Assembly: GCA_903908535.1 (NCBI GenBank)
Contig: CAIVSE010000042.1
Location: forward strand, 1-49,337
Direction of reading: 5' to 3'
Origin: Candidatus Doudnabacteria bacterium
GTDB taxonomy: Bacteria; Patescibacteriota; Doudnabacteria; UBA920
Length of the DNA: 49,337 bases
Shown here: piece after piece, positions 3,281 through 48,633 of the stretch
Layout of the letters: the number at the start of each line of letters is the position of its first letter
Numbering within the stretch: the stretch's first letter is position 1
The notes under the pieces: generated by a model
The model's database searches: none
Seen by the model: the letters and a program-made list of their open reading frames with translations, nothing else
Told to the model about the DNA's origin: nothing
Made by a program: the position numbers and the translations under genes

Positions 3281-3324
3281 ATGAACAATGGGAACCATTG
3301 TGCATCAATAGTTCACATTAAAAC

Positions 3325-3358
3325 ATCCCCGCCGGCCGTAAGGCGAGCGGGGATTTTG
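3325..3358. terminator. Stem-loop between convergent fusA and a small membrane gene
   Basis: ATCCCCGC (3325-3332) pairs with GCGGGGAT (3347-3354), followed by TTTTGG. Confidence 0.6.
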
Positions 3359-3640: not shown

Positions 3641-5036
3641 AGATGATACTGAACTTAGGGTCGCCAAAATTTGAGTTTTTAAGGATTAATGATGTTTAAA
3701 TGTTTTCCAGATTTGTTTCTTAGCCTCATTCATTAGTTTGGCAAATTTGTTGTCACTGTAAGCGAGGGAAATATCCTCCAGTTCTTTTTCCGTCCGTCCT
3801 GGAGCCAAATATTGCGTCCAATTTTCCAAAGTCTTTAATTTTTCGTAAGGAGTCATATAGGTCTCGTATTTTTTCCTTTGCTTGCCTTTGTCGTCTGTGT
3901 AGACGGTTGGATAAGCGCACTGCCGGTGGAAATTCAGGTAAGGGTTAAAATATGTCTGGTAGAATTTGTTGATGGCCGGAGCGTACTTTTTGGGGATGTG
4001 AATGTAGCCAATCCACTTGCGGACAATCTTGTTTTTAGTTTCGGCCAGAGCGTTGTCATTACAATGGCGACTTCTTGATTTAGTTTGGTTAATAACTAGC
4101 TCATTTAACAATTTAGAAACTCTTTGGTTAATGTATTCGCTGCCGTTGTCGGAATGGAAGTTTTCAATCTTAAATGGGAATTCGGCTAACGCGGCTCTAA
4201 GCGCTGGCAGCAGGAAGTGGTGACTTATGCCCTTAACGCAGACTTCAACCTGCCACTGCAAGACTTCGTCCACCAGGGTAATATGGTATACGCCCTTTTG
4301 TTTGTCCAAATCCCCCTGATGCACGCTATCTACCCGTAAAAAGCCGGGTTTGCCGTAAGGCTGGGGTTTCTTTCGTTCCCCGATGGGGACTATGACAGGA
4401 TCGGTCTTGGTGTAATGCAGGGCTCTTGTTTTGTACCTTTCGGTTACGCGGAGGTTGTAAATATGTCCCAGGGAAATGTTTTGCAGACGGACAAACTTTT
4501 CGTCCCCAAACAAATTAAACATTCTTTTAAATATTTGTTGCAGGGCCTGGCCGGTGGACATATGGTGGAGGTTATCCGTTTCCACCAAAGCTTCAATGTC
4601 GGCTTCGGTGTAGACTTTTTGGAAAGTATTTTTCTTTCCCCAGTCGGAAGATATTTTTAAACAGCCTTTGTCCTTTTTCTTTTTAATCAACCGCTTGGTT
4701 TGGATTTCTGAATAGCCAGTCATTTTGGCCAGGTACTTAATGGCAACTCCTTTCTCCCTCCGCTTAAGTTTAAAATATTTGACCTGGTTAATCTTTTTGG
4801 CCATCCAGTCGTAAATTTCAGTCCTGTCCTGGGCCAACAGGGTAACTTGGTTGGCACCCTTTAAAAAATCCTCCATTTCCATTATGCTGCAAACGGGTGA
4901 GTCGTTCATTGTGATTGTCATAACTCCCAGTGTGGCGACTCATCCTTTTGTTGGCAAGGGGCAGGCTACGGACATCCAGAAAGCTGGATTTCAGTATCTT
5001 TTCCGTTGGAAACAGGGGGCTACTCCAGTATCATCT
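3641..5036 (-). mobile_element. Candidate IS element carrying an rve-type DDE transposase
   Basis: An 11-bp inverted repeat AGATGATACTG (3641-3651) and its reverse complement (5026-5036) bracket the transposase ORF. Exact ends and target duplication were not resolved. Confidence 0.45.
3686..4921 (-). CDS. Integrase-core (rve) DDE transposase
   Basis: FHSDNGSEYIN and NDNALAETKNKIVRK motifs typical of the retroviral-integrase DDE fold; N-terminal HTH-like region; 411 aa. Confidence 0.8.
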   Translation of the reverse strand: MTITMNDSPVCSIMEMEDFLKGANQVTLLAQDRTEIYDWMAKKINQVKYFKLKRREKGVAIKYLAKMTGYSEIQTKRLIKKKKDKGCLKISSDWGKKNTFQKVYTEADIEALVETDNLHHMSTGQALQQIFKRMFNLFGDEKFVRLQNISLGHIYNLRVTERYKTRALHYTKTDPVIVPIGERKKPQPYGKPGFLRVDSVHQGDLDKQKGVYHITLVDEVLQWQVEVCVKGISHHFLLPALRAALAEFPFKIENFHSDNGSEYINQRVSKLLNELVINQTKSRSRHCNDNALAETKNKIVRKWIGYIHIPKKYAPAINKFYQTYFNPYLNFHRQCAYPTVYTDDKGKQRKKYETYMTPYEKLKTLENWTQYLAPGRTEKELEDISLAYSDNKFAKLMNEAKKQIWKTFKHH

Positions 5037-5444: not shown

Positions 5445-6149
5445 ATGAAGACAAAAACTTTTCTATCTTTAATTGGCGGATTGGTAATCTTGATTATTTT
5501 AGCCTACGCGGTTTACGCGCTTTTTGGCACCAAACATAATTTGGATAATTCAGATTTACCGGCATCTTCCACGCCGTTAACGGTTGGCGTCCCAACCACC
5601 ACCCCAATTTCCACCGGCACGCCGCTGACTTTAAGCGTTTATAACAACAGCCAGTATAATTATAAAGTTTTATATTCCAGTGATTTTACCCTGTTTACCC
5701 AGCCGCAAATTGTTGCTTATAATTTTGGCGCAATAGATGGCAGCGCCTGCGACCGGGCTGCAGATTCATGTTTTGTCCTGGATAAAACGCCTTACACCAA
5801 TACCAATTTTGATTCCGCCGCGGTTTCGGTAAAATTTTTGCCGGACATCAAAACAGCCGCGGCCTGCGCCGTGTTTGATCCCAACGAAATTGATGGCGGC
5901 GCACCGGGTCCCAGCCAAACTATTAACGGCGTGACCTTTATTACTGCCATTGGCAGCGATGCCGGCGCTGGCAATTTTTACAATACCCATTATAACCGTA
6001 CCTGGTACGACAACATGTGCCTGGAGGTTAACGGAACCATCCACAGTACCGACCCCGGTGTTTACAGCCCGCCGCGGCCGGAGTTTGACCAAAACGCGGT
6101 TTGGCAGCAATTAAATATAGTTATCAATTCCTTTCGGTTTACGAATTAG
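5445..6149 (+). CDS. Membrane-anchored or secreted hypothetical protein
   Basis: N-terminal TM segment LSLIGGLVILIILAYAVYALF followed by a Thr/Pro-rich linker; 234 aa. Confidence 0.5.
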   Translation: MKTKTFLSLIGGLVILIILAYAVYALFGTKHNLDNSDLPASSTPLTVGVPTTTPISTGTPLTLSVYNNSQYNYKVLYSSDFTLFTQPQIVAYNFGAIDGSACDRAADSCFVLDKTPYTNTNFDSAAVSVKFLPDIKTAAACAVFDPNEIDGGAPGPSQTINGVTFITAIGSDAGAGNFYNTHYNRTWYDNMCLEVNGTIHSTDPGVYSPPRPEFDQNAVWQQLNIVINSFRFTN

Positions 6150-6179: not shown

Positions 6180-6473
6180 ATGAGCATGGAAGACGTTAAA
6201 AGAATAATCACCCCAATTTTGAAGCTGTATGGTATTAAACACGCGGCCGTTTTTGGCAGTGTGGCCAGGGGAGAGGCTGGGCCTAATAGCGATGTTGATT
6301 TGGTAGTAAAAACAGGTAAGTTGGAATTCGGTATTTGGAGCTTTGTGGGTCTGAAACAGGATTTGGAAAAGGCTTTAAATAAAAAAGTGGATGTAATTTC
6401 CGAACCGGCGGTAAATGATAAATTGAGAAATAAGATTAAAAACGATTTAATCACCATTTATGAAGGAGCATGA
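6180..6473 (+). CDS. Minimal nucleotidyltransferase (MNT-type antitoxin)
   Basis: GSVARGEAGPNSDVDLVV is a GS...DxD nucleotidyltransferase motif; 97 aa; overlaps the downstream HEPN gene. Confidence 0.85.
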   Translation: MSMEDVKRIITPILKLYGIKHAAVFGSVARGEAGPNSDVDLVVKTGKLEFGIWSFVGLKQDLEKALNKKVDVISEPAVNDKLRNKIKNDLITIYEGA

Positions 6474-6795
6474 CGTAACATTGGATTTATTGCTTCAGGC
6501 CACAGGAAAAGTCTCCGATTATTTAAAAGAGTTTGGTTTACCGGAATTTTTAACCGATTCTAAAACCCAAAGCGCTGTCATAATGCAATTGGTTGTTATT
6601 GGGGAACTGTCCAAGAAACTTCCTGAAGAATTAAAGTTGCAAATAGATCTTCCGTGGAAACTTATGTCCGGTTTCCGCGATTTTGCCGTCCATGAATATT
6701 TTGGTTTGGACTTAACCCAGGTCTGGGATACAGCCAGCCGCGATGTGCCGATAGTGAAAGAAAAATTGGAAGATTATCTGAAATCAAATAAATAA
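6460..6795 (+). CDS. HEPN/DUF86 (HepT-like) toxin
   Basis: FRDFAVHEY fits the Rx4HxY HEPN motif; 111 aa; 14-nt overlap with the MNT gene. Confidence 0.8.
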   Translation: MKEHDVTLDLLLQATGKVSDYLKEFGLPEFLTDSKTQSAVIMQLVVIGELSKKLPEELKLQIDLPWKLMSGFRDFAVHEYFGLDLTQVWDTASRDVPIVKEKLEDYLKSNK

Positions 6796-7451: not shown

Positions 7452-7613
7452 ATATCTTAGCTAACAAGCTAACTAATTAACTAATTGCCCTGGATTCCGC
7501 AAGGAAAAAAGAGATACCCTCGGCACTGATGCCTTATCGATAAGCATTAGTGATGAGGGGGTCTCGGGCAAGCAATCGTCCCGATTGTATCGGGACGGGA
7601 AAGACCTAAACAA
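7452..7613 (+). promoter_or_regulatory. Structured about 160-nt tuf leader
   Basis: Nested helices: GAGATACCCTC with GAGGGGGTCTC enclosing CACTGATGCCTTATCG with CGATAAGCATTAGTG, then hairpin GTCCCGAT-TGT-ATCGGGAC at 7578-7596. Confidence 0.45.
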
Positions 7614-8810
<1,197 letters not shown>

Positions 8811-8830
8811 AATCTTTTAGAGATACAAGA

Positions 8831-8859
8831 AATCCTGGGTTAACGCCTGGGATTTTTTG
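8831..8859 (+). terminator. Rho-independent terminator after tuf
   Basis: AATCCTGGG / CCTGGGATT stem (two G-U pairs), followed by TTTTTT. Confidence 0.6.
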
Positions 8860-8900
8860 TATTTAAATGATATAATACGTTCAGAATTTACAAAATTTTT

Positions 8901-9818: not shown

Positions 9819-9863
9819 TTAAAGAGCTTTTGAAGTAAAAAAGATATCCACTTATCAACAGAG

Positions 9864-9892
9864 ACTCCCTTAAATGGGAGTTTTTGTTTTTT
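9864..9892 (+). terminator. Rho-independent terminator
   Basis: ACTCCC-TTAAAT-GGGAGT followed by TTTTTGTTTTTT. Confidence 0.65.
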
Positions 9893-10517: not shown

Positions 10518-10546
10518 TTGACAGATTTTTCAATATAGTATAAGAT
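10518..10546 (+). promoter_or_regulatory. Sigma70-like promoter of the S10 operon
   Basis: TTGACA (10518-10523), 17-nt spacer, TAAGAT (10541-10546). Confidence 0.55.
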
Positions 10547-10624
10547 ATTGCAAGCGGCTACTGTTATAGCAGTAAGCCTGTTTAAATCAACTAACCAATT
10601 GACCTTTTCGGCAATTTAACAACA

Positions 10625-10960
10625 ATGGCCAAGGACACGGATAAAGCAGAGCAACAGCCAAGAATCCGCATAAAAATAAGGGCTTATGATCATAAATTGA
10701 TTGACCAAAGCTCTAAGCAAATTGTAGATACGGCCAAGAGAACCGGCGCTGCTATTTCCGGACCAATACCGTTACCCACAGAGCACAGCAAGTACACCGT
10801 GCTCCGCAGCACTTTTGTGCATAAAGACAGCCGTGAACAGTTTGAAATGCGGGTCCACAAGAGGTTGATTGATATTTTGCAAGCCACTCCCAAGACCATA
10901 GACGCTCTGACCAATTTAAACCTACCGGCCGGGGTGGATGTGGAAATTAAAATGAGTTAG
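10625..10960 (+). CDS. rpsJ: 30S ribosomal protein S10
   Basis: [17 protein letters not shown]...GPIPLPT; short N-terminal extension. Confidence 0.94.
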
Positions 10961-11067
10961 TTTAGGTAAATTAGTTCTTTTTGGCCCAAGGTTAACAGCC
11001 TTAACCGGAAGACAACAGTTTACTCCCATTGATTTTTTTGATGCGGGTAAACCACCCGTATTTTTTT

Positions 11068-11730
11068 ATGAATTTCCTGATTGGTAAAAAACTGAATATG
11101 TCCCAGTACTTCACTGAAAACGGTGAGGTTATTCCGGTTACCGTGGTCCACGGCCAGCCAATGACCGTGACCCAAATTAAATCCACAGAAGGCAAAGACA
11201 AATACAGCGCCGTGCAGGTTGGCACTGGCAAAAGAAAAAAGGTATCTAAATCCATTGCGGGACACACAAAGGAATTAGGTGCTTTTTCTGTTTTGACTGA
11301 ATTCCGCGTCCCCGAGACGTCGGCTTACCAGCGCGGCCAGAAATTAGACATCTCCACTTTCCAGGTTGGCGAAATGGTTAATGTTATTGGCATCAGCAAG
11401 GGCCGCGGTTTTGCCGGGGCCATGAAGCGCCACGGTTTTCACGGATTTCCTATGTCTCACGGCCACAACAAGCCCCGCAGTGTCGGTTCCATTGGTCAAC
11501 GTTTTCCCCAGCACGTCAGAAAAGGTATGCGCATGGCCGGCCACATGGGCGTGGAGGGCGTAACGGTTAAAAATTTACAGGTAGTAGAAGTTGATGCTAT
11601 TAAGAATTTACTGACTTTAAAAGGCGCTATACCGGGAACCAGGAATGGCATTATTAAAGTTATTTCCACCGGTAAAGTTAAGCCTTTGTTTAAGGCCGAA
11701 GCGGTTAAGGAAGAAAAGAAGAAAAAGTAA
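11068..11730 (+). CDS. rplC: 50S ribosomal protein L3
   Basis: ATG at 11068 gives MNFLIGKKLNMSQYFTENGEVIPVTVV, matching the canonical L3 N-terminus. Confidence 0.93.
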   Translation: MNFLIGKKLNMSQYFTENGEVIPVTVVHGQPMTVTQIKSTEGKDKYSAVQVGTGKRKKVSKSIAGHTKELGAFSVLTEFRVPETSAYQRGQKLDISTFQVGEMVNVIGISKGRGFAGAMKRHGFHGFPMSHGHNKPRSVGSIGQRFPQHVRKGMRMAGHMGVEGVTVKNLQVVEVDAIKNLLTLKGAIPGTRNGIIKVISTGKVKPLFKAEAVKEEKKKK

Positions 11731-11817
11731 CCACAGATACACAGATTTCACGGATAACACAGATTTAAAGATTAAATCTATACTATCCGTGCCATCTGTG
11801 GAATCAGTGTATCAGTG
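11731..11817 (+). repeat. Intergenic hairpin repeat (CACAGATA-type) between rplC and rplD
   Basis: Starts CCACAGATACACAGAT, ends GTGTATCAGTG. The arms are imperfect inverted repeats with about 26 of 34 positions complementary by my alignment. Confidence 0.8.
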
Positions 11818-11826
11818 ATATATATT

Positions 11827-12483
11827 ATGAAGACAAGCTTATACAACCAGAAGGGTGAAATTATTGGAGACGTTGAACTCAACGCCAAAATTTTTGACGT
11901 CAAGCCCTCCATGCACTTATTGGCCGAGGCCGTGCGCGTGCAGCAAAACAATGCCCGCCAGGGCAGCTCCCACACCAAAACCCGCGGCGAAGTTTCCGGC
12001 GGCGGCAAAAAGCCCTGGAAGCAAAAAGGCACCGGTCGCGCCCGCGTGGGCAGCATCCGCAGCCCAATTTGGCGCCACGGCGGCATAACTTTTGGTCCGC
12101 GTTCCAACCAGAACTGGGAGCTGAAGATAAACAAGAAGGCCAAGACCAAGGCTTTGTTTATGTCCCTGTCCGATAAGGTCAAAAATAACCAGTTTATTGT
12201 TATCGACCAAATTGAACTGGCCGCGCCTAAGACCAAAGATTTTGTGGCCGTAATGAAGGCTTTGCAAAAGGAAGTGAAGGATTTTGGCAAAAAGCAGTTG
12301 TTTTTGATGCCCAAGGCCAGTGACAATTTAATGAGGGCATCCCGCAATATCCCGTCCGTAACCGCTTCTTTGGCCAGCAGCCTGAATATTTTGGATGTAA
12401 TGAAAGCCGACAGTGTGGTAATTTTAAAAGATAGTTTGCCGGTTATAGAAAAGATTTATTTAAAACAGGCGGTTAAAAAATAG
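11827..12483 (+). CDS. rplD: 50S ribosomal protein L4
   Basis: MKTSLYNQKGE...KPWKQKGTGRAR; operon order. Confidence 0.93.
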   Translation: MKTSLYNQKGEIIGDVELNAKIFDVKPSMHLLAEAVRVQQNNARQGSSHTKTRGEVSGGGKKPWKQKGTGRARVGSIRSPIWRHGGITFGPRSNQNWELKINKKAKTKALFMSLSDKVKNNQFIVIDQIELAAPKTKDFVAVMKALQKEVKDFGKKQLFLMPKASDNLMRASRNIPSVTASLASSLNILDVMKADSVVILKDSLPVIEKIYLKQAVKK

Positions 12484-12486
12484 TTT

Positions 12487-12762
12487 ATGGCGAAATTTGA
12501 CCAAAGCATAATTAAGAAGATGAGAATTTCCGAGAAGGCCACGCAGTCACAGGCCGGCGGCAAGTATATTTTTGACGTGGCAAAAAGCGCCAATAAGATT
12601 TCCGTTAAGCACGCCGTGGAGCAGCAATACCAGGTTAAGGTCACCCAGGTTAATATTGTTAATAACCAGGGCAAGGATCGCCGTTATGGCAAGACCAGCG
12701 GCACAACCAGTGATTTTAAAAAAGCTATTGTAACCCTAAAGCAAGGGCAGAAGATAGAATAA
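12487..12762 (+). CDS. rplW: 50S ribosomal protein L23
   Basis: Operon position, 91 aa, ISEKAT motif. Confidence 0.9.
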   Translation: MAKFDQSIIKKMRISEKATQSQAGGKYIFDVAKSANKISVKHAVEQQYQVKVTQVNIVNNQGKDRRYGKTSGTTSDFKKAIVTLKQGQKIE

Positions 12763-12765
12763 TTT

Positions 12766-13605
12766 ATGGCCGTAAAGATTTACAAACCAACCACCGCGGG
12801 AAGGCGCAAGGGCACCAGCGTGACCGACTATTCCGTTTTGCGCAAGGACAAAAAGTCCCCTAAGTTTTTAATTTTGTCCGGCAGCAACCGGGCAGGCCGC
12901 AACAATAGCGGTAAAATTACTGTCCGCCACCGCGGCGGCGGCTCCCGCAAAATTATCCGCATTGTGGATTTTTCCCGCCAGGACAAAAAAGACGTGCCGG
13001 CCGTTGTTAAAAGCATTGAATATGATCCTACCCGCAGCGCCTTTATCTCACTTTTAGCTTACAAAGACGGCGACAAGCGCTACATGCTGACCCCGCAGAA
13101 CGTCAAAGTCGGCCAGAAAATTTTATATTCCGACACCGCGGAAATCCTGCCGGGTAACCGTTTGAGCATTAAGAACATTCCGGTGGGTTCCATTATCCAC
13201 GACATAGAAATGATCCCGGGCCACGGCGGCAAGATTGCCCGCAGCGCCGGCAGTTATGCTACACTACAGAATACGGAAGCCGGTTATGGTATGTTAAAGA
13301 TGCCCAGCGGCGAAATCCGCCGCGTCAAAGAAGCGGCTTTGGCCACCATTGGCCAGCTGGCTAACAGTGACTGGATGAATGTGCGCATTGGCAAAGCCGG
13401 CCGCAAACGTTTAATGGGCTGGCGCCCCACAGTCCGCGGAAAAGTTATGAACCCGGTGGACCATCCGCACGGCGGAGGCGAAGGCCATAACCCAATTGGT
13501 ATGAAGTATCCCAAAACTCCTTGGGGCAAACACGCGCTGGGAGTTAAGACCCGTTCCAAGAAAAAGTACAGCAACCGTTTAATTATAAAACGCAGAAGCA
13601 AATAA
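12766..13605 (+). CDS. rplB: 50S ribosomal protein L2
   Basis: RHRGGGSRK...NPVDHPHGGGEG. Confidence 0.96.
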   Translation: MAVKIYKPTTAGRRKGTSVTDYSVLRKDKKSPKFLILSGSNRAGRNNSGKITVRHRGGGSRKIIRIVDFSRQDKKDVPAVVKSIEYDPTRSAFISLLAYKDGDKRYMLTPQNVKVGQKILYSDTAEILPGNRLSIKNIPVGSIIHDIEMIPGHGGKIARSAGSYATLQNTEAGYGMLKMPSGEIRRVKEAALATIGQLANSDWMNVRIGKAGRKRLMGWRPTVRGKVMNPVDHPHGGGEGHNPIGMKYPKTPWGKHALGVKTRSKKKYSNRLIIKRRSK

Positions 13606-13614
13606 TATAACGAT

Positions 13615-13947
13615 ATGTCCAGATCATCTAAAAAAGGACCATATGTAGATCCCAGAGTGCTGAAGAAAGTCCAGAACGGCAAGGCGGGGCAGACCCAGAT
13701 TAAAACCTGGTCGCGCGCCTGCGCCATTCCGCCGGAATTTGTCGGCTTTACGTTTTTGGTGCATAACGGCAAAATCCACCTGCCCGTGTTCGTGACCGAA
13801 AATATGGTCGGGCACAAGCTGGGCGAATTTGCTTTAACCCGCAAATTCCAGCGCCATGGCGGCAAAATGGCCAAGGAACAGGAAGCCGCCAAAGCCGCCG
13901 CGGAAAAAGCTAAATTAACGCCAGCCACGACCCCGGAGAAGAAATAA
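13615..13947 (+). CDS. rpsS: 30S ribosomal protein S19 with a Lys/Ala/Glu-rich C-terminal tail
   Basis: [11 protein letters not shown]...VHNGK...GHKLGEF. Confidence 0.94.
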
Positions 13948-13955
13948 TTATTTTT

Positions 13956-14537
13956 ATGGCAAAAGTTACAGCTACAACCGAGTCTAAACCCCTTGTTACC
14001 GCTTTCGCGAGAGGTCTTCACGTTGCACCGCGCAAAATGCGTTTGGTCACTAACCTCGTCAAGAATATGAATGTTAACGACGCCCTGGCCCAGCTTACCT
14101 TTACTGACAAGAAGGCTTCGCCCATGGTCATGAAGCTGCTCCAGTCCGCGGTCGCCAATGCTACCAATAATTTTTCCCTGTCCGCCGACCATTTATATAT
14201 TAAAACTATTACCACTGACCAGGCCGCGGTAATGAAGCGCTATTTCCCGCGCGCCCGTGGCAGCGCCTTTGTTATCCGCCGCAAGCTCTGTAATGTTAAC
14301 GTGGTTTTGGAAGAGCGCAAAAAAGGCAAAGCGGCTGCCGGCCGGATGTCGTTCCTAAAGCGCAAAGCCGCCGAAACCAAGCCTGAAATTCAAAGCATAG
14401 ATGCCAAAGAAGCCGTTAACACCAAGCCGGAAAAGGTTTTAGGCAAAAAGAGTGAAATCGGCAAATCCGACGAGCAGATCAAGATGAATAAAGTCCAGAA
14501 TAAGCGCAGATTATTTAACCGCAAGACCGGCGAATAA
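13956..14537 (+). CDS. rplV: 50S ribosomal protein L22 with a long basic C-terminal extension
   Basis: L22 core (residues 1 to about 115) plus about 75 extra residues; operon order. Confidence 0.9.
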   Translation: MAKVTATTESKPLVTAFARGLHVAPRKMRLVTNLVKNMNVNDALAQLTFTDKKASPMVMKLLQSAVANATNNFSLSADHLYIKTITTDQAAVMKRYFPRARGSAFVIRRKLCNVNVVLEERKKGKAAAGRMSFLKRKAAETKPEIQSIDAKEAVNTKPEKVLGKKSEIGKSDEQIKMNKVQNKRRLFNRKTGE

Positions 14538-14541
14538 ATTT

Positions 14542-15216
14542 ATGGGACACAAGATTAATCCAACTTCATTACGCGTCAATATTACCGAAACCTGGAGATC
14601 CAAGTGGTTTTCCAAGAGCCACTATAAAGAGCAGCTTAAGGAAGACGTACAAATCCGCGAATACCTGGAAAAGCATTTAAAAAAGGCCGGCCTGGTCCGC
14701 GTGGACATAGAGCGCAAAGGTGACGGCACGCTGGCGGTAATGGTTAAAACCACCAAGCCCGGTTTAATTATCGGCAAGGGCGGCGCCGGCATTGAGGACC
14801 TGAAGACAAAGATTAAGGCCAAGCTGAAGATGAAGAAGGATATTAAGGTTAATATAGAAGAAGTCCGCGACGTCAATTTGCAGGCCCAGGTTATTGCCGA
14901 CGGCATTGCCGAACAGATAGAAAAGCGCGTGGCCTTCCGCCGGCTGATGAAGCAAACTCTGGAACAGATGATGAATGCCGGTGCCAAAGGCGCCAAAGTC
15001 GCCATTGGCGGCCGCTTAAACGGCGCGGAAATTGCCCGCACCGAACATTTGGCCAGCGGTAAAATCCCTCTGCATACCCTGCGCGCCGACATCGACTTTG
15101 CCCGCAGCACCGCTTTTACCACTTACGGCACGGTTGGAATTAAAGTCTGGATTTATAAAGGTGATATTTTTGAAGCCAGAAATCTAGACAGTAAAGTTGC
15201 CGAGCCAGTTAAATAA
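14542..15216 (+). CDS. rpsC: 30S ribosomal protein S3
   Basis: [12 protein letters not shown]...[10 protein letters not shown]. Confidence 0.95.
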
Positions 15217-15236
15217 TTTTTTTAAGACCACCCTGT

Positions 15237-15653
15237 ATGTTTATCCCCAAAAAATTAAAGCACCGCAAACAGCACCGCGGCAACACCAAGGGCCAGGCCA
15301 CGGCCGGCGCGGAAATTGCCTTTGGGCAGTTCGCGCTTAAGGCCATGGAAAGCTCCTGGGTCACTGCCCGCCAGATTGAGGCGGCCCGGCGCGCCATGAC
15401 CCGCTACGTCCAGCGCGGCGGCAAAATTTGGATTCGCATGTTCGCGGACAAGCCGGTGACTTTGCACGGCAATGAAAGCCCCATGGGCGGCGGCAAGGGC
15501 GCGGTGGACCACTTTGTGTCCGTGGTCAAAAAAGGCAAAATCCTGTTTGAGATGGATGGCGTCACCGAAGTCCAGGCCAGGGAAGCCATGCGGCTGGCCA
15601 GCTACAAACTGCCGGTCAAAAGTAAATTTTTAGTTAAACAGCATCAAGGGTAA
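15237..15653 (+). CDS. rplP: 50S ribosomal protein L16
   Basis: [15 protein letters not shown]...RMGGGKG-like. Confidence 0.95.
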
Positions 15654-15662
15654 TTTAAATAT

Positions 15663-15854
15663 ATGAAGTATAAAGAATTAAAAAACAAGCCCGAGGCTGA
15701 AGCCAAAAAGTTTTTGGAAGAGCTGCAGGACCAGGCGCACGCTTTGGCCCAGAAAATCCGCCAAAGCGAGGAAAAGCAGACCCACAAGCTTAAGGCCTTG
15801 AAAAAGGATATTGCCCGCGTAAAAACTCTATTAACTACTTTAAAAGCCGCCTAA
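15663..15854 (+). CDS. rpmC: 50S ribosomal protein L29
   Basis: 63 aa, helical, operon order. Confidence 0.88.
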   Translation: MKYKELKNKPEAEAKKFLEELQDQAHALAQKIRQSEEKQTHKLKALKKDIARVKTLLTTLKAA

Positions 15855-15858
15855 ATTT

Positions 15859-16104
15859 ATGGATCAGACAAGCAAAAAACAGAATATGGTTGGAGTTGTC
15901 GTTTCTGACGTGATGCAGAAAACGGTGGTGGTTAAAGTTGACCATAAAAAGCGCCATCCCAAGTACAAGAAGAGCTATACCGTGTCCAAGCGCTATAAGG
16001 CCCATGACGAGAACAACGAATATAAGGTTGGTGATAGGGTGATAATTGAAGCTATTAAGCCCATGAGCCGGGAGAAGAAGTTTAAAGTTTTAAGCAAAGC
16101 TTAA
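15859..16104 (+). CDS. rpsQ: 30S ribosomal protein S17
   Basis: GVVVSDVMQKTVVVKV...KYKKSY...HDENNEYKVGD. Confidence 0.92.
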   Translation: MDQTSKKQNMVGVVVSDVMQKTVVVKVDHKKRHPKYKKSYTVSKRYKAHDENNEYKVGDRVIIEAIKPMSREKKFKVLSKA

Positions 16105-16113
16105 TTTTAATTT

Positions 16114-16506
16114 ATGTTACAGGTACGATCTTACATTAAAATTGCGGATAACACCGGCGCCAAAGTCGTCAACGTTTTTTCCGTTAACGGCAAGAACAGC
16201 AACCGCTTTGCCCGCGTGGGCGATATAGTGGCCGGCAGCGTGCGCCAGGTTTCCCCCAATTCCACTTTAAAGAAAGGCGACAAAGTTTACGCCGTAATCG
16301 TAAGAACCCGCAAGGAAATGCGCCGCAGGGACGGTTCCTACATCCGTTTTGACGAGAACGCCGGCGTACTGGTCAACAAGGAAAATGGCGAGCCTAAGGG
16401 CACCCGCATTTTTGGCCCCATTCCGCGCGAAGTCCGGGAAAAAGCCATTGGCAACATGGAAGATGGTTACAAAAAGATTATTTCATTAGCCCCGGAAGTT
16501 ATTTAA
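16114..16506 (+). CDS. rplN: 50S ribosomal protein L14
   Basis: [17 protein letters not shown]. Confidence 0.94.
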
Positions 16507-16510
16507 TTGT

Positions 16511-16831
16511 ATGAACAATAAGATGAAAATTAGGAAAGGTGATATGGTAAAAGTTTTGTCCGGCAAGGACAAGAACAAGACCGGCAAAGTTCTCACCGTT
16601 ATGCCAAGCTGGGGCAAGCTCGTGGTGGAAAATATTAACCTCCACACTCACTTTGAGCGCAGCAAGCAGGCCGGCCAGCCCGGACAAAAAGTTGTGGCCC
16701 CTTCGCCGCTGCCTGTAGGCAAGGTCCAGCTGGTGGATTCCTCTTCCGGCAGCCCCAGCCGCGTAGGATATAAGTTTTTGGAGAATGGGAAAAAACAGAG
16801 AGTGGCTAAAAAGAGCGGTAAAGCAATTTAA
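16511..16831 (+). CDS. rplX: 50S ribosomal protein L24 (alternative start at 16523)
   Basis: MKIRKGDMVKVLSGKDKNKTGKV. Confidence 0.9.
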   Translation: MNNKMKIRKGDMVKVLSGKDKNKTGKVLTVMPSWGKLVVENINLHTHFERSKQAGQPGQKVVAPSPLPVGKVQLVDSSSGSPSRVGYKFLENGKKQRVAKKSGKAI

Positions 16832-16833
16832 AA

Positions 16834-16916
16834 CCACAGATACACGGATTACACTGATATCACAGATTATTAAATCTATCATTTCAGTGTCATCTGTGAC
16901 ATCTGTGTATCAGTGG
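16834..16916 (+). repeat. Intergenic hairpin repeat (CACAGATA-type) between rplX and rplE
   Basis: Starts CCACAGATACACGGAT, ends ATCTGTGTATCAGTGG. Confidence 0.8.
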
Positions 16917-16927
16917 AATATTATTTT

Positions 16928-17467
16928 ATGGAAAGATTACAGCAACAATACAATAAGGAAATCGCCCCGGCTTTACAAAAGAAGTTCGCCTTTAACAATG
17001 TCATGCAAATCCCGAAAATCCGGAAGGTTGTGGTTAATATTGGCTTAAGCAAAGTTAAGGAAGACAAGAAAAAAGTTGATGAAGTCGCCGAAGAGCTAAA
17101 GAAGATTACCGGCCAGGCGCCGGTAAAAACCAAGGCCCGTACCTCCATTGCCGGCTTTAAAATCCGCGAAAATCAGGTTGTGGGCATGATGGTTACGCTC
17201 CGCGGCTACCGCATGTACAGCTTTTTGGACAAATTAATTAATGTGGCCCTGCCCCGCGTGCGCGACTTCCAGGGCGTTAACGCCAATGGTTTTGACGGCC
17301 GCGGCAACTACCATCTTGGCTTAAAAGAACAGCTGGTTTTTCCGGAAATTTCTTCTGAAAGCCTGGACAATATTTTCGGCATGGAGGTTTCCATTGTCAC
17401 CAACGCGGGCAAGGACGAGCCGGCCAGAGAACTTTTAAAATTAATGAGTTTCCCGTTTAAGAAATAA
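16928..17467 (+). CDS. rplE: 50S ribosomal protein L5
   Basis: ATG at 16928 gives [16 protein letters not shown]... The track start at 16913 lies inside the repeat. Confidence 0.93.
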
Positions 17468-17475
17468 TTAACATT

Positions 17476-17670
17476 ATGGCTACCCAAGCACAAATTGCAA
17501 AAGCAAAGCGCAGCAGGATTAAACCGAAGTTTTCCACCAGGCTCATCCGCCGCTGCTGGAAGTGCGGCCGCAAAGCCGCCTATATGCGCGATTTTGACAT
17601 GTGCAGGATTTGCTTCAGGGAACTGGCCAGTAAAGGGGAGATACCGGGAGTGAATAAAGCGTCTTGGTAG
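17476..17670 (+). CDS. rpsN: 30S ribosomal protein S14, zinc-binding type Z
   Basis: 64 aa with CWKC...CRIC cysteine pairs. Confidence 0.92.
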
Positions 17671-17729
17671 ATATTATAAGTATCTTTGATAAAATTATTA
17701 TAAATTGACCATCGTATTAATTTAAACAT

Positions 17730-18125
17730 ATGTACACAGATCCGATAGCTGACATGTTAACCCGTATCCGCAACGCCGCCCTGGCCAAAAAGGGCGATCT
17801 GGTTTTGCCGTACTCCAAGTTTAAGCGCAGTCTGGCCAATGTCCTGCTCAAGGAAGGCTTTATTGCCGGAGTCAGCGATTCTGTCGAAGACGGACACAAG
17901 ATGCTACGGATTAATTTAAAGTACACTCCGGAAGGCGAAGCGGTCATCGCGGGAATTAAAAGAATCAGCAAGCCGGGCCAGCGCATTTATCTGCCGGTGG
18001 ATAAAATTCCAAGGACCAACAGCGGTTATGGCGTCACGGTAGTTTCCACCCCGAAGGGATTGTTGACAGATAGGCAGGCAAGAAAGGATAGGGTTGGGGG
18101 AGAAGTAGTGTGTCAGGTGTGGTAA
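17730..18125 (+). CDS. rpsH: 30S ribosomal protein S8
   Basis: MYTDPIADMLTRIRNA. Confidence 0.95.
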   Translation: MYTDPIADMLTRIRNAALAKKGDLVLPYSKFKRSLANVLLKEGFIAGVSDSVEDGHKMLRINLKYTPEGEAVIAGIKRISKPGQRIYLPVDKIPRTNSGYGVTVVSTPKGLLTDRQARKDRVGGEVVCQVW

Positions 18126-18136
18126 AATAATTAAAT

Positions 18137-18223
18137 CCACAGATACACAGATATCACGGATAACACAGATTTAAAAATTGAATCTATAATATCCGTGTCA
18201 TCTGTGGCATCCGTGTATCAGTG
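18137..18223 (+). repeat. Intergenic hairpin repeat (CACAGATA-type) between rpsH and rplF
   Basis: Starts CCACAGATACACAGAT, ends ATCCGTGTATCAGTG. Confidence 0.8.
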
Positions 18224-18233
18224 AATATATTTT

Positions 18234-18791
18234 ATGTCTAGAGTTGGAAAAAAACCAGTCGTCATTCCATCCGGCGTAAAGATGGAACTCAAGCAAAACA
18301 TTTTGACTGTCACCGGTCCTAAAGGCAGTTTAAGCCTGGCCGTGCATCCCCAGGTTAAAATTGAAATTTCCGAAAAAGAAGCCCGGGTTTTGGTTGACCG
18401 CGAAGACAACAAAAAAGAACGCGCTTTGTGGGGACTGTTCCGCGCCCTTACCCAGAATTTAGTGGACGGCGTGACCAAAGGCTTTGAAAAGAAACTGGAA
18501 ATTAACGGCGTGGGTTTTAAAGTAGCTTTACAGGGTTCAAATAAGCTGGTCATGGCTTTGGGCTTTTCCCATCCGGTGGAAGTGGACGTGCCTAAAGATT
18601 TAACCGCCGCGGTGGACAAAAATACTATTACCATTACCGGGGCTGATAAGCAGCGTGTGGGCCAGTTTGCCGCGGAAATCCGCGAATTAAAAAAACCGGA
18701 ACCATACAAGGGCAAGGGCATTAAGTATTCTGATGAAGTTGTGTTAAGGAAAGCCGGTAAAGTGGTTAAAGTTGTCGGAGGCGGCAAATAA
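18234..18791 (+). CDS. rplF: 50S ribosomal protein L6
   Basis: MSRVGKKPVVIPSGV. Confidence 0.94.
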   Translation: MSRVGKKPVVIPSGVKMELKQNILTVTGPKGSLSLAVHPQVKIEISEKEARVLVDREDNKKERALWGLFRALTQNLVDGVTKGFEKKLEINGVGFKVALQGSNKLVMALGFSHPVEVDVPKDLTAAVDKNTITITGADKQRVGQFAAEIRELKKPEPYKGKGIKYSDEVVLRKAGKVVKVVGGGK

Positions 18792-36646: not shown

Positions 36647-36720
36647 ATCCCGCGGAAACACGGATTTCGCTGAGTTCGCGGAGCGGATTCCGCGGTATCA
36701 GCATCATTCGCGTATCAGCG
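36647..36720 (+). repeat. Intergenic hairpin repeat, CGCG-variant; ends 11 nt before the tkt ATG
   Basis: ATCCCGCGGAAACACGGATTTCGCTGAGTTCGCGGA...TCCGCGGTATCAGCATCATTCGCGTATCAGCG. Confidence 0.6.
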
Positions 36721-36731
36721 AAAAAACTAAA

Positions 36732-37586
36732 ATGCAAAAATTTTCTCAAAACGAATTAAAATACAAGGCCAACGATATCCGCCAGGACATTATCCAAATG
36801 CTGCTGGAAGCCAAATCCGGCCACAGTGCCGGCCCTTTGGGTATGGCGGATGTCTTTACCGCTTTATATTTTGGCGGTGTGCTGAATTACCGCCCGGACC
36901 AGCCAGGCTGGCCCGGCCGCGACCGTTTAGTGCTTTCCTGCGGCCATATTTGTCCGGTATTGTACGCCACTTTGGCCGAAGCCGGCTATTTTCCCAAAAC
37001 CGAATTAATGACTTTGCGCAAATTCGGCAGTCGGCTGCAGGGGCATCCTCATAATTTAGATCTTCCGGGTGTGGAAACTACTTCCGGCCCGCTCGGCCAG
37101 GGCTCGTCGCAGGCCGTGGGCATGGCTTTGGCTTTCCGCATGGACCACGTAAAAAACCGTGTTTATTTAATTATGTCCGATGGTGAGCAAAACGAGGGCC
37201 AAACCTGGGAAGCCGTCATGCTGGCCGGTAAAAACAAACTCCATAATTTGACGGCTATTATGGACCGCAACAATATCCAAATAGACGGTTTTACCGAAGA
37301 CGTTATGCCTTTGGAGAATTTAAAAGCCAAGTATGAGGCTTTTAACTGGCACGTGCTGGAAGTCAATGGGAATAATATTGATGAAATTATTGACGCCTGT
37401 CTGGAAGCCCAAAGCATTTACGAAAAGCCTACGTTAATTTTAGCGCACACAATTCCGGGGATGGGCGTGGATTTTATGGAAAACGATTTTAAGTGGCACG
37501 GCAATCCGCCCAATAAGGAGCAAGCCGTGTTGGCTTTAAATGAATTAAGAACTTTGCGCGGACAAATAACCAGTGAACACCAATAA
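36732..37586 (+). CDS. Transketolase, N-terminal (TPP-binding) subunit
   Basis: SGHSAGPLG...CGHICPVLY...SDGEQNEGQTWEA. Confidence 0.9.
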   Translation: MQKFSQNELKYKANDIRQDIIQMLLEAKSGHSAGPLGMADVFTALYFGGVLNYRPDQPGWPGRDRLVLSCGHICPVLYATLAEAGYFPKTELMTLRKFGSRLQGHPHNLDLPGVETTSGPLGQGSSQAVGMALAFRMDHVKNRVYLIMSDGEQNEGQTWEAVMLAGKNKLHNLTAIMDRNNIQIDGFTEDVMPLENLKAKYEAFNWHVLEVNGNNIDEIIDACLEAQSIYEKPTLILAHTIPGMGVDFMENDFKWHGNPPNKEQAVLALNELRTLRGQITSEHQ

Positions 37587-46327: not shown

Positions 46328-46969
46328 ATGTCTACCAAGAACACGTCTGTAGTCCCCGGAGTAGCAGTTGGAACGACGCTCGCGACTGGCGAGCAGATTG
46401 AGCACATCATGGACATGTGGCGCCGTCGCCTGAAGGGTCGCGATGTGACTCTCGCAGAGGCCAACCACATCATCCAAAACGGTGGTCAATATCTGCCGGT
46501 TATGGACAAGGCCGCCGACGTCCTCGTCGATCAGGTCCGTTCCGACATGCAGAGCACCATTGTCCGCATGGTCCGTAACGTCCGCCGCAACCGAACCGCA
46601 GTTCAGGCCATCAACGACACCGGCCGCGTGCAATATGTGGATTCCTCGGTGGTCGCCACCATGCCAACGGGCGATGGGCCGGAAGATGTGGAGTTGACTT
46701 ACTTCCGCGCAAGCCGCTACCTTTCTGACGACGAGTTGGAATTGGAGTTCGGTAGCCGGGAACTGGTTCCCGACCCGCAGGCACAAGCTGCCGACAACGA
46801 AGCCGACTCCGCGTTTGCCGATGAGCACCCCAATGGGACTCATTGGAAGAACAAAAAGGGTCAGTGGTGCTTCGCCTCGTTCGACCAGGACGTCGTCGAG
46901 CGGCTCGTGCACGTTTGCCGCTTCGGCAACAGGTGGCATGACATTTGGTGGTTACCGTTCGGTTTTTAG
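46328..46969 (+). CDS. DGR target (variable) protein; C-terminus now truncated and altered by IS insertion
   Basis: GAAGGAG SD 7 nt upstream of the ATG. The last 28 codons before the IS junction match TR except at TR adenines. The ORF reads into the IS inverted repeat (..WWLPFGF*). Confidence 0.85.
   Translation: MSTKNTSVVPGVAVGTTLATGEQIEHIMDMWRRRLKGRDVTLAEANHIIQNGGQYLPVMDKAADVLVDQVRSDMQSTIVRMVRNVRRNRTAVQAINDTGRVQYVDSSVVATMPTGDGPEDVELTYFRASRYLSDDELELEFGSRELVPDPQAQAADNEADSAFADEHPNGTHWKNKKGQWCFASFDQDVVERLVHVCRFGNRWHDIWWLPFGF
46869..46953 (+). other. DGR variable region (VR), diversified part
   Basis: The 85-nt gapless alignment to 48534-48618 has 16 mismatches, all at TR adenines. Confidence 0.9.
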
Positions 46970-48170
46970 TGGATATTTTCGTCAGCTTTTTTGTAAGATG
47001 CAACCTTTTTAATACCAAGCTTAGTTAGTATGATAGGCCAGAGGGCCTGTTTTTTTATGGTAAATTCTAGGGAACAGTGTTTGTTTAAATGTTTAAATTT
47101 AGTGTCGCAATCGGTAAATGTTTTAGTTCGTCTTCGAATCATCCATGCGTTTAGCCACCTTCTTGCTGACTTTAAACTTTGGAAACCTTTAATGGTTTTA
47201 AGTCTTCCGTTTAAATGGGAGTTGTAAAGTTCGATTAAGTTAGTGTTGTTGGGACAGTTTTCAAAGTGGAAGTAAGCGAACAGGTCATTGCGTCGTTTTT
47301 CAATGTCGTCCAGGATATTCCAGAGCGTTAGATTTTTGCCAGCGTGGTTATTCCTGACGTGTTTAATTCCTTTAGTAACCTCATCGTCATTGGTGGCTTT
47401 AAACACATGCAGCTTTAATGAATTAAAGAAATGCTGATAAGTAGTTTCTGTTCGGACTCTTAAAATCTTCCTAATATTATCCAAATAGTGGTTGTGGCAT
47501 AACTGTAATCTTGCGTATGGAAAGACCTTGTTTAATGCCTGTTTTATGCCGTCACGGTCGTCGACAACCACAATACGCAGTTTGTACCCCAGGTCTTTAA
47601 TAGTCTGGAAGTAAAGAGAAAAATTTATCTCGTCCTCAGCTAGGACCACTTGGCCATGAGGCAGGTCATGGGACATGTAATCTATGCCAAATAGGAAGGG
47701 TATCTTCCGCTCAAAGTCTTTAATCGCCACGTACTTGCCGTCCAGGATTAATATGCCTGACCAAAGATTCTCATCACATAAACCCTTTGTTAATTCGGTG
47801 TTGTCCGGCAACTGGGATATTTCGGCGATGACACGCGCGTAAGTCTGTGAACTGGATAATTTTTCTTCGTCTCCCAATCTTCTAAAACCTACTCCGTCAA
47901 TGTGTTCTATCCAAAGGTTAGTGGGATTGTTGCCATGGTAAACCGAAAATGAATGCTTACATTTACGACAAATATATTTGTGACTGCGTCCCTGCTTACC
48001 ATTTTTAACAGTTTTACTACTCCCGCACAACGGACAAATTCGGTGGCGTTTTTTTTGACATCATTAATTCTTTCTTAAATATTTTAATGGTTAACTGGGT
48101 TAATACTTGATTTTATCCCTTAAGTTTAGCCAAAACATCCAATTCTATCAACCAAAAACCGAACGGTATC
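46951..48170 (-). mobile_element. IS element (about 1.22 kb) inserted in the VR
   Basis: Perfect 15-bp terminal inverted repeats TACCGTTCGGTTTTT at 46953-46967 and 48154-48168. A 9-12 bp direct duplication CATTTGGTG(GTT) lies at 46942-46953 and 48171-48182. Confidence 0.85.
46966..48030 (-). CDS. DDE transposase with N-terminal CxxC..CxxC zinc finger (IS1/IS256-superfamily-like; family unresolved)
   Basis: CPLCGSSKTVKNGK...YICRKCKHSF; VVVDDRDGIKQALNKVFPYARLQLCHNHY; TNLIELYNSHLNGRLK. The track start is TTG, and two ATGs at 48064/48061 are offset by one frame across an A8 run. Confidence 0.75.
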   Translation of the reverse strand: MCGSSKTVKNGKQGRSHKYICRKCKHSFSVYHGNNPTNLWIEHIDGVGFRRLGDEEKLSSSQTYARVIAEISQLPDNTELTKGLCDENLWSGILILDGKYVAIKDFERKIPFLFGIDYMSHDLPHGQVVLAEDEINFSLYFQTIKDLGYKLRIVVVDDRDGIKQALNKVFPYARLQLCHNHYLDNIRKILRVRTETTYQHFFNSLKLHVFKATNDDEVTKGIKHVRNNHAGKNLTLWNILDDIEKRRNDLFAYFHFENCPNNTNLIELYNSHLNGRLKTIKGFQSLKSARRWLNAWMIRRRTKTFTDCDTKFKHLNKHCSLEFTIKKQALWPIILTKLGIKKVASYKKADENIH

Positions 48171-48204
48171 CATTTGGTGGTTCGCTGGCCGCCGCAAGTC
48201 CTAG
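48171..48204 (+). other. Displaced 3' end of the target gene: duplicated VR bases, GC-rich IMH-like segment and the original stop
   Basis: CATTTGGTGGTTCGCTGGCCGCCGCAAGTCCTAG matches TR 48607-48633 and restores ..DIWWFAGRRKS* when joined to 46953. Confidence 0.8.
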
Positions 48205-48533: not shown

Positions 48534-48633
48534 AATTCGCCACGTTCAACCAGGACGACGACAAGCGGCACGTGAACGTTAACCGCAACGACAACAGGTG
48601 GAATGACAATTGGTGGTTCGCTGGCCGCCGCAA
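48534..48633 (+). other. DGR template region (TR)
   Basis: Matches VR (46869-46953 plus 48183-48197). Adenine-rich, with seven AAY codons in the VR frame. Track ORF 48524-48835 is the TR read in the VR frame, not a gene. Confidence 0.9.

Follow-up and report, generated by a model that had tools for sequence, protein, structure and literature searches.

Junctions between ribosomal-protein genes of Candidatus Doudnabacteria, a lineage of the Patescibacteria or candidate phyla radiation (CPR), carry a family of imperfect hairpin repeats. We analysed these elements in a stretch of 49,337 nt (contig CAIVSE010000042.1 of assembly GCA_903908535.1, forward strand; referred to as the window throughout) and in loci of relatives and of more distant genomes. 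The elements are 76-92 nt long, have no coding capacity, and are in every case placed after a stop codon, a short distance upstream of the next ATG. On balance, we regard them as probable non-coding palindromic repeats, similar to repetitive extragenic palindromic (REP) sequences, REPINs and miniature inverted-repeat transposable elements (MITEs), that multiply within Doudnabacteria genomes and persist at intercistronic sites.

Six hairpin copies in the window

By its L4 protein the window belongs to Candidatus Doudnabacteria, with nearest relatives at 90, 86 and 80% L4 identity; the genome derives from a lake metagenome. Hairpins were located by inverted-repeat search combined with folding of each gap, a sliding-window scan of minimum free energy being too noisy in coding sequence. 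The original prediction had described copies at 11731-11817, 16834-16916, 18137-18223 and 1-62, with inverted termini, tandem CACAGAT and ATCTGTG arms and an AT-rich loop. All four are present at these coordinates, and the anatomy is seen in the sequences and in their alignment; the set was incomplete, however, in that two additional copies with CGCGGAT-type units lie at 489-570 and 36648-36723. In total the window holds six copies, all on the gene (+) strand, which are listed here with the leaders that separate them from the downstream ATG. The rpsL gene and the genes flanking the rplC-rplD, rplX-rplE and rpsH-rplF junctions were named by NCBIfam.

1-62, + strand: partial copy reduced to right arm and loop by the window start, lying upstream of rpsL (ATG at 72); aligned to the other copies; covariance-model match at 1-64, 5'-truncated, 34.2 bits
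63-71, + strand: A/T-rich 9-nt leader AGAATAAAA from the hairpin to the rpsL ATG
489-570, + strand: diverged copy between rpsL and rpsG (ATG at 578) with CGCGGAT/ATCCGCG units, a 3' terminal GTATCA..GTG remnant being kept; found by inverted-repeat search; fold -30 kcal/mol; covariance model 58.2 bits on the + strand, 30.6 on the - strand
11731-11817, + strand: full copy between rplC and rplD, directly after the TAA (11728-11730); -35.3 kcal/mol, z = -6.75; covariance model 89.5 bits
11818-11826, + strand: A/T-rich 9-nt leader ATATATATT before the rplD ATG (11827)
16834-16916, + strand: full copy between rplX and rplE (ATG at 16928), 2 nt past the TAA; -31.7 kcal/mol, z = -4.8; covariance model 82.6 bits
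16917-16927, + strand: A/T-rich 11-nt leader AATATTATTTT before the rplE ATG
18137-18223, + strand: full copy between rpsH and rplF (ATG at 18234), 11 nt past the stop codon; -33.2 kcal/mol, z = -6.2; covariance model 96.8 bits
18224-18233, + strand: A/T-rich 10-nt leader AATATATTTT before the rplF ATG
36648-36723, + strand: diverged copy with CGCGGAA/ACACGGAT units between the genes for ribulose-phosphate 3-epimerase (rpe) and transketolase (tkt; ATG at 36732), both named by Pfam; seen by alignment; fold -34.5 kcal/mol; covariance model 50.7 bits on the + strand, 36.9 on the - strand

A covariance model, as suggested by the original prediction, was built from 13 copies of three genomes. Scanned over the 49 kb it found exactly these six sites, all on the + strand, with no further copy; nine copies were found in locus L043, from a relative, and one in locus L001. 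The copies begin with CCACAGATACAC and end with GTGTATCAGTG(G/A), and the terminal 11-mer GTGTATCAGTG with at most one mismatch has 7 matches against 0.31 expected, a number reached in 0 of 100 shuffles. The copies at rplC-rplD and rpsH-rplF, 6.4 kb apart, are 90-92% identical. The rpe-tkt copy is the sole member in the window outside the ribosomal operons, in an unrelated operon 18 kb from the nearest copies. An independent assembly of the public lake-water metagenome run X1 matches 16599-17031 with zero differences, so that the rplX-rplE element is no assembly artefact of the window.

Insertion into junctions and spread within genomes

The elements are insertions, because the orthologous junctions are short or empty in the closest relatives. 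In the two closest of these, L041 and L042 (90% and 86% L4 identity), the coding sequence flanking the three junctions with full copies is nearly identical to that of the window, and the junctions themselves, whose comparison had been proposed at the outset, measure 3-18 nt: rplC-rplD is 3 nt long in both, rplX-rplE 6 nt in L041 and 10 nt in L042, and rpsH-rplF 18 nt in both. Occupancy of ribosomal-protein junctions by hairpins of at least 18 pairs, whatever their unit sequence, was as follows.

Window: 5 of 21 junctions
L041: 3 of 20 junctions
L042: 0 of 19 junctions
L043: 16 of 20 junctions
L046: 15 of 20 junctions
L047: 15 of 17 junctions
L060 and L061: most junctions

Copies cluster by genome rather than by junction. 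Two copies from one genome share 83% identity on average, two from different genomes 62%; between the window and L043, orthologous copies are only 64% alike at L3-L4 and 50% at S12-S7, while the L043 copies at L6-L18 and L3-L4 are 96% alike. The elements thus spread or homogenise within a genome.

When filled sites were compared with empty ones, possible duplications of AAT or AA were seen at two copies and none at rplC-rplD, the flanks being A/T-rich and the palindrome running into them. In L043 the palindrome continues into the A/T flanks as TTATATTCACAG...CAGTGAATATAA, which suggests that the A/T leader belongs to the element.

Constraint on pairing and placement

The left arm consists of 4-5 tandem CAC-N-GAT units with a period of 8-9 nt and the right arm of ATC-N-GTG units, with the AT-rich loop between them. 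Position 4 of the heptamer varies and mostly has no pairing partner on the opposite arm. Because the heptamer centre is usually mismatched, the helix is a chain of 3-bp steps broken by mismatches and by spacers of 1-3 nt; in the terminal unit the gene strand always has an A.A mismatch. RNA of the full copies folds at -32 to -35 kcal/mol (z = -4.8 to -6.8). In the 13 copies, taken from three genomes, pairing holds for 93.4% of the cells of the proposed helix, compared with 17-41% in slid controls, and 7 pairs are changed on both sides, a number matched in 0 of 500 shuffles. The two diverged copies align unit for unit with the CACAGAT copies and have the same GTATCA..G terminus; the change from CACAGAT/ATCTGTG to CGCGGAT/ATCCGCG on both arms together amounts to compensatory A-U to G-C changes. 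Complementarity of the arms is therefore maintained through compensatory changes.

Position is constrained as well. For 56 junction hairpins of seven loci the median values are 4 nt from the stop codon, 6 nt to the ATG and 88 nt in length. The window copies start 0, 2 and 11 nt past the stop codon in the three full copies (0-11 nt overall) and end 8-11 nt before the ATG, with 9, 11, 10 and 9 nt in the four copies noted originally, as had been predicted with a 3' end about 10 nt upstream of the next start. With the hairpin folded, the single-stranded distance from stop to start is about equal to that of an empty junction. The idea that the 3' end occupies the position of a Shine-Dalgarno (SD) sequence proved wrong for this genome. 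An SD-like motif precedes 11 of the 63 starts of window genes against a background of 11.5%, and nearly every ATG is preceded by 8-10 A/T bases; the genome hardly ever uses SD, so that the 8-11 nt between hairpin and ATG are an ordinary A/T leader and no SD slot. Replacement of an SD by the element was ruled out on the same ground.

Canonical promoters (TTGACA/TATAAT) and terminators (GC stem and T-tract) are present elsewhere in the window, with true terminators identified by terminator scan and folding at 3322-3357, 8830-8860 and 9857-9888. None of the six copies appeared in the terminator scan, their stems being long and A/T-rich with no T-tract, and intrinsic termination was rejected. A promoter role was rejected too: the sole promoter-like matches, at 16896-16924 and 18204-18231, stop 2-3 nt short of the ATG, which leaves no room for a usable start. 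Given that they have neither T-tract nor usable promoter, the elements are presumably co-transcribed with the operon.

Orientation and strand asymmetry

Copies follow the gene strand in 6/6 cases in the window, as originally claimed, in 1/1 in L001 and in 8/9 in L043. The inverted copy, at L043 19681-19834 in the 158-nt junction between rplO (L15) and secY, has a larger loop, and its right arm corresponds to the usual left arm in reverse complement. The bias in orientation is thus strong, with this one exception. In relatives, gene regions on the minus strand held no such hairpins. Because the informative copies all lie in co-directional operons, orientation relative to transcription is inseparable from orientation relative to replication.

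In 39 of 48 unbranched hairpins of ribosomal-protein junctions the complement of the mRNA folds more stably than the mRNA strand (binomial p = 1.5e-5; copies were counted without correction for shared ancestry, so that p overstates their independence), a bias present across many families. These 48 hairpins contain 74 G-U pairs on the mRNA strand versus 152 on the complement, and 175 A.C oppositions versus 84 G.T. The gene strand is richer in A than in T in 49 of 52 hairpins; third codon positions of the same genes, by contrast, have T >= A in five of seven loci. Simple mutation bias fails to explain the asymmetry. Putative sense-strand RNA structures of the same loci show the opposite pattern, with 6 G-U pairs versus 2 in the S10-L3 spacer and 5 versus 0 in the tuf terminator. 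Such an asymmetry is expected in either of two cases: if a strong hairpin near the start codon burdens the cell and selection, through orientation and mismatches, keeps the mRNA version weaker and A-rich, or if copying works on the complementary strand. The weaker folding of the mRNA strand argues against selection for a strong mRNA hairpin. At distant loci the better-folding strand is antisense to genes in 17 of 25 cases, which is suggestive at most, and strand preference of the covariance model is mixed and was given no weight.

Many sequence families with one architecture

The junctions of relatives hold more than 10 unrelated unit sequences with one shared hairpin architecture, including the following families (left-arm/right-arm units).

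AAGTTAT / ATAACTT
GTAGGAAGTAG / CTAC..
GTAAGCA / TGCTTAC
ACAAAT / ATTTGT
GACAAGATT / AATCTTGTC
CAATTAAC / GTTAATYG
GATATTRGG / ..ATATC
AACGCGGAA / TTCCGCG

In L043 a further repeat family, CTACAGAAATACT...CTACGGAAAACTACAGAAG, follows both rpsG and fusA (at S7-fusA and at fusA-next gene), and half elements consisting of the left arm only occur at L29-S17 and L14-L24. L041, the closest relative, is without the CACAGAT family and has CCCTACTAAAGTACTAATG... hairpins at rplB-rpsS and rpsC-rplP (3816-3963 and 5589-5683). Many families of one architecture are better accounted for by structure-tolerant selfish repeats than by a single specific binding protein.

Hairpins of the CACAGAT type also occur outside CPR. 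A pattern scan of metagenome contigs gave 36 loci with about 30 true CACAGAT-type hairpins on contigs of 38-67% GC; L002, L003, L004 and L022 were chance matches inside coding sequence. One form, called type B here, has a period of exactly 10 bp (CACAGAT+GAA and CACAGAT+ACA, CACAGATGAA units), the spacers GAA and ACA of metagenome copies often being in non-palindromic order. Type-B hairpins are found on plasmid pTs485 of Candidatus Thiodictyon syntrophicum (L044 3001-3139 and 4531-4659), one of them between the genes for subunits A and B of formylmethanofuran dehydrogenase, and four copies are located on IMG/VR viral contigs (L056-L059). Plasmid pANACY.02 of Anabaena cylindrica has a half element of type B (L045 2501-2540), and in L036 a CACAGAT-type hairpin (624-703) lies inside the 23S-5S rRNA spacer. 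On L015, a contig of 41% GC, CACAGAT-type hairpins at 10545-10649 and 11215-11346 flank a single minus-strand open reading frame (ORF) of 191 aa, the upstream hairpin ending 2 nt from the ATG.

Origin and possible role of the elements

Most likely the elements are selfish repeats on which selection acts through the mRNA, and there is a smaller but appreciable chance that they have a real function as RNA. Such repeats would persist at sites where some 90 additional bases are tolerable to a very compact genome, namely between a stop codon and a short, A/T-rich leader without SD. The element consists of two inverted arrays of short units with A/T-rich outer ends, and by these ends it would supply the gene downstream with an A/T leader of its own. 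As part of the polycistronic mRNA it would form a mismatch-punctuated hairpin, whose folding would leave no more than about 10 single-stranded nt between the stop codon and the next start, sparing expression of the downstream gene. Selection on orientation and mismatches would keep the version on the mRNA strand A-rich and less stable than its complement. We infer co-transcription, a copying mechanism, and neutrality or a mild modulation of expression. Among the roles raised by the original prediction, a MITE that tolerates only this position is best supported, by the empty junctions of relatives, the clustering of copies by genome and the variable occupancy (from 0/19 to 15/17); a MITE in the strict sense is not established, as neither a target-site duplication nor an autonomous partner could be demonstrated.

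Several observations weigh against this interpretation. No target-site duplication is demonstrable at the window copies, whose A/T-rich flanks are ambiguous, and the 49-kb window contains no autonomous insertion sequence (IS) with matching ends; the IS256-like gene (46966-48030; terminal inverted repeats TGGTTACCGTTCGG...) and the rve-like gene (3686-4921) have ends unrelated to the hairpins. A RAYT (IS200-like Y1 transposase) gene was not noticed among those ORFs of the window that were scanned, which were only some of them. Likeness of copies within a genome could stem from gene conversion instead of transposition. Ribosomal-protein operons are unlikely hosts for selfish DNA, yet 75-90% of their junctions are filled in some relatives, which hints at a benefit or at targeted insertion. 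The CAC-N-GAT unit is conserved over CPR, a gammaproteobacterial plasmid and cyanobacteria, which is unusual for a lineage-specific MITE. Finally, element sequence was found in four public DNA runs of low depth and in zero RNA runs.

A less likely alternative is that the hairpins are selected elements of the polycistronic mRNA, acting as processing site, exonuclease barrier, platform for coupled reinitiation or block to Rho loading in operons without SD, with sequence free to change if hairpin and spacing are kept. RNase III-type cleavage between the early genes of phage T7 and REP-like stabilisers of mRNA 3' ends are models for such a role. It would accord with the concentration of hairpins in the str, S10 and spc operons (5/6 window copies; 75-90% of junctions in five relatives), with the narrow distances to stop and start codons, with arm pairing preserved through compensatory changes, with the convergence of more than 10 unrelated families on one architecture and polarity, A-rich on the sense strand in 49/52, and with the hairpin in the 23S-5S spacer of L036. 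Compensatory changes, however, are equally expected of a DNA palindrome, and the closest relatives do without hairpins at the same junctions, L042 having none in 19. It is also the mRNA strand that folds worse in 39/48 hairpins, with half the G-U pairs of the complement, while putative sense-strand structures at the same loci show the opposite G-U pattern. Processing, stability or translational control of the mRNA, as first suggested, is for these reasons not favoured. In a bolder form, which we consider unlikely, the elements would be a structure-defined class of intercistronic RNA hairpins, made from tandem units of 7-10 nt and integral to expressing ribosomal-protein polycistrons without SD: the fold would join stop and start, carry an A/T landing pad and serve processing or stability, or else reinitiation, and new members of the class would arise by a copying mechanism that recognises hairpins whatever their sequence. 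Copying of this kind would explain how more than 10 families with one architecture and polarity fill up to 90% of junctions.

Two further explanations appear improbable to us. The arms could be arrays of binding sites for a protein that recognises CAC-N-GAT, either as DNA on both arms or as RNA, possibly a translational or transcriptional regulator as proposed for the TAACTGA heptamer repeats that precede start codons in other bacteria. The conserved heptamer with its free, usually mismatched central base, the recurrence of the CAC-N-GAT unit in distant phyla and the exact 10-bp period of type B are consistent with this, and the many type-B spacers in non-palindromic order favour recognition of units over simple pairing; TAACTGA repeats offer a precedent with the same placement and likewise no ribosome-binding site (RBS) (PMC4679880). 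This possibility, also among those raised originally, is weakened by the more than 10 unrelated units that share the architecture in the same operons and genomes (AAGTTAT, GTAGGAAGTAG, GTAAGCA, ACAAAT, GACAAGATT, CAATTAAC and others), which would call for many proteins in a genome of about 1 Mb. Moreover, the window copies have a period of 8-9 bp, which is not helical, the repeats show no linkage to a gene for a candidate protein, and close relatives lack the elements. With equally slight probability, the hairpins lack mobility altogether: replication slippage and fold-back (template-switch) synthesis would create and extend them within A/T-rich junctions, and gene conversion between junctions would then homogenise them. 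Arms of tandem units are the product expected of slippage, neither target duplication nor transposase was found, each of the many families dominates a few neighbouring junctions, and half elements exist (L29-S17 and L14-L24 of L043). Growth in place is at odds with near-identical copies kilobases apart (window 11731 and 18137, 90-92%; L6-L18 and L3-L4 of L043, 96%), with the copy 18 kb off in an unrelated operon and with the same family in different phyla, and gene conversion requires a homologous target that is already present.

Under the reading as multiplying repeats, the elements bear on genome reduction. Genomes of CPR/Patescibacteria are held to be streamlined, yet in several Doudnabacteria the operons with the highest expression and conservation contain 15-20 hairpin inserts. 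Repeat proliferation is thus compatible with genome reduction, and the inserts mark where reduced genomes absorb DNA. They also constitute a natural experiment on translation initiation without SD and on the coupling of cistrons.

Neighbouring features

The repeats disturb automatic gene calling, and contigs break inside elements. Starts were called inside hairpins for L4 of L043 (237 aa) and L29 of L046. In L043, L046, L047 and L061 rpsN (S14) was not called, leaving a gap of 250-375 nt between rplE and rpsH in which its coding sequence ATGGCTACACAAGCACA... is visible.

Two structured regions of the window lie in or near the same operons. At 7480-7600, upstream of tuf, there is a conserved, strongly structured leader consisting of GAGATACCCTCGGCACTG...GATGAGGGGGTCTCGGGC and a second GC hairpin. 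It is found also in L042 (6215-6356), L043 (6170-6307) and L061 (5800-5944) and is absent from L046; it shows apparent compensatory changes between relatives and has no match in Rfam, and it is not a tRNA. A tRNA search of the whole window was negative. The S10-L3 spacer (10961-11067) is conserved among relatives, has more G-U pairs on the sense strand and ends in a terminator-like hairpin (11040-11062, GATGCGGGTAAACCACCCGTATT and TTTTT) just before an ATG at about 11065. This ATG, and not the TTG at 11029, is probably the true start of rplC, and the spacer may be an attenuator or autoregulatory leader between rpsJ and rplC.

The window further contains a transposase gene of the IS256/Mutator family on the - strand (46966-48030, within 46949-48172), bounded by 27-nt inverted repeats at 46949-46975 and 48146-48172; an 83-nt direct repeat of 83% identity lies around it at 46871-46953 and 48536-48618. 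In the region from fusA to tuf, a 411-aa ORF on the opposite (-) strand (3686-4921), with a weak match to rve (integrase core) and weak inverted repeats at 3660-3677 and 4922-4939, is probably another IS. Small overlapping ORFs between fusA and tuf (6180-6473 and 6460-6795) are candidates for a toxin-antitoxin pair, their size and position matching a nucleotidyltransferase/HepT-like pair annotated in L042.

Comparison with known elements

Rfam scans of the window and 12 loci gave no match at gathering thresholds; sub-threshold matches were to families of miRNA precursors and reflect a generic long hairpin. Literature searched by sequence string returned primer coincidences only, and literature on CPR repeats, on Doudnabacteria and on MITEs or REPINs in CPR gave no description of such repeats. 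In agreement with the initial impression that no described element is involved, we found no account of these hairpin repeats in the literature and RNA families searched.

In their working the elements resemble REP/REPIN sequences and MITEs, and we do not file them as members of either. Like REP, BIME and REPIN sequences they are short non-coding palindromic repeats, extragenic and often intercistronic in operons, presumably co-transcribed, without a demonstrable target-site duplication, and evolving as populations within genomes. REP elements can act as 3' stabilisers of mRNA, and REPINs are REP doublets that form hairpins and are mobilised by RAYT transposases. The present elements, too, are inverted doublets that form a hairpin, extragenic and present as a population within a genome. 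They differ from REP in that they have no 5' GT(A/G)G head, the termini being 5'-CCAC...GTGG-3' with GTGG at the 3' end of each arm and thus of opposite polarity, and in that the arms are arrays of 7-nt units spaced by 1-3 nt, compared with one palindrome of 20-25 nt in REP; unlike REPINs, many unrelated families occur here within one small genome. With MITEs such as Correia elements of Neisseria, ERIC/IRU, RUP/BOX and Nezha, they share a size of about 80-150 bp, terminal inverted repeats, lack of an ORF, location between genes, probable co-transcription and presence/absence polymorphism between relatives. Terminal inverted repeats, a length below 300 bp, multiple non-coding copies and polymorphism at orthologous sites were all found here, whereas a duplication of TA or another target was not demonstrable and a parent IS with the same ends was absent from the 49-kb window. 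Further differences are the tandem-unit arms, the strict placement between stop codon and A/T leader and the extreme density in ribosomal-protein operons.

Correia hairpins are substrates of RNase III, and the RNase III hairpins of phage T7 early genes and of rRNA operons are, like the present elements, long, imperfect and intercistronic with internal mismatches. The analogy is functional only; the elements described here are repeated, mobile-like and absent from relatives. MIRUs of mycobacteria, of 40-100 bp, are likewise intercistronic in operons and inserted in one orientation relative to transcription; they are, however, direct repeats with small ORFs that overlap the flanking stop and start codons, in contrast to ORF-less hairpins past the stop codon. 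TIGR arrays (Tas-associated) were considered since they are found in CPR without sequence conservation, and were rejected: they need tandem units of about 36 nt that contain two spacers, together with box C/D motifs and an adjacent tas gene, whereas the elements are dispersed single hairpins of 7-nt units with 1-3 nt spacers and no adjacent gene for a Nop domain. Likeness to CsrA sites, IHF sites, DnaA boxes, uptake sequences and attC sites was considered and set aside, in each case because of the consensus or because so many families exist.

In their placement the elements come closest, among described phenomena, to the TAACTGA heptamer repeats of Beggiatoaceae, Thiocystis, Cyanobacteria and Bacteroidetes (PMC4679880, MacGregor 2015). 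These direct repeats have 2-6 units with a period of exactly 7 nt and no complementary arm (one inverted set is reported), are oriented to start codons without RBS, end a few nt before them, and occur also inside ribosomal-protein operons, at fusA, L3 and S4 (PMC4679880). Start codons are without RBS in both cases, the patchy cross-phylum range overlaps that of CACAGAT type B (Chromatiaceae, Cyanobacteria), and the unit CACTGATA holds ACTGATA, which is the TAACTGA repeat in another phase. By contrast, the units described here are spaced by 8-10 nt, and every array has an inverted partner with which it forms a hairpin. Tandem-unit architecture and the cross-phylum CACAGAT type link the Doudnabacteria elements to the unexplained heptamer repeats upstream of starts in sulfur bacteria and cyanobacteria, and a common mechanism or binding factor may exist.

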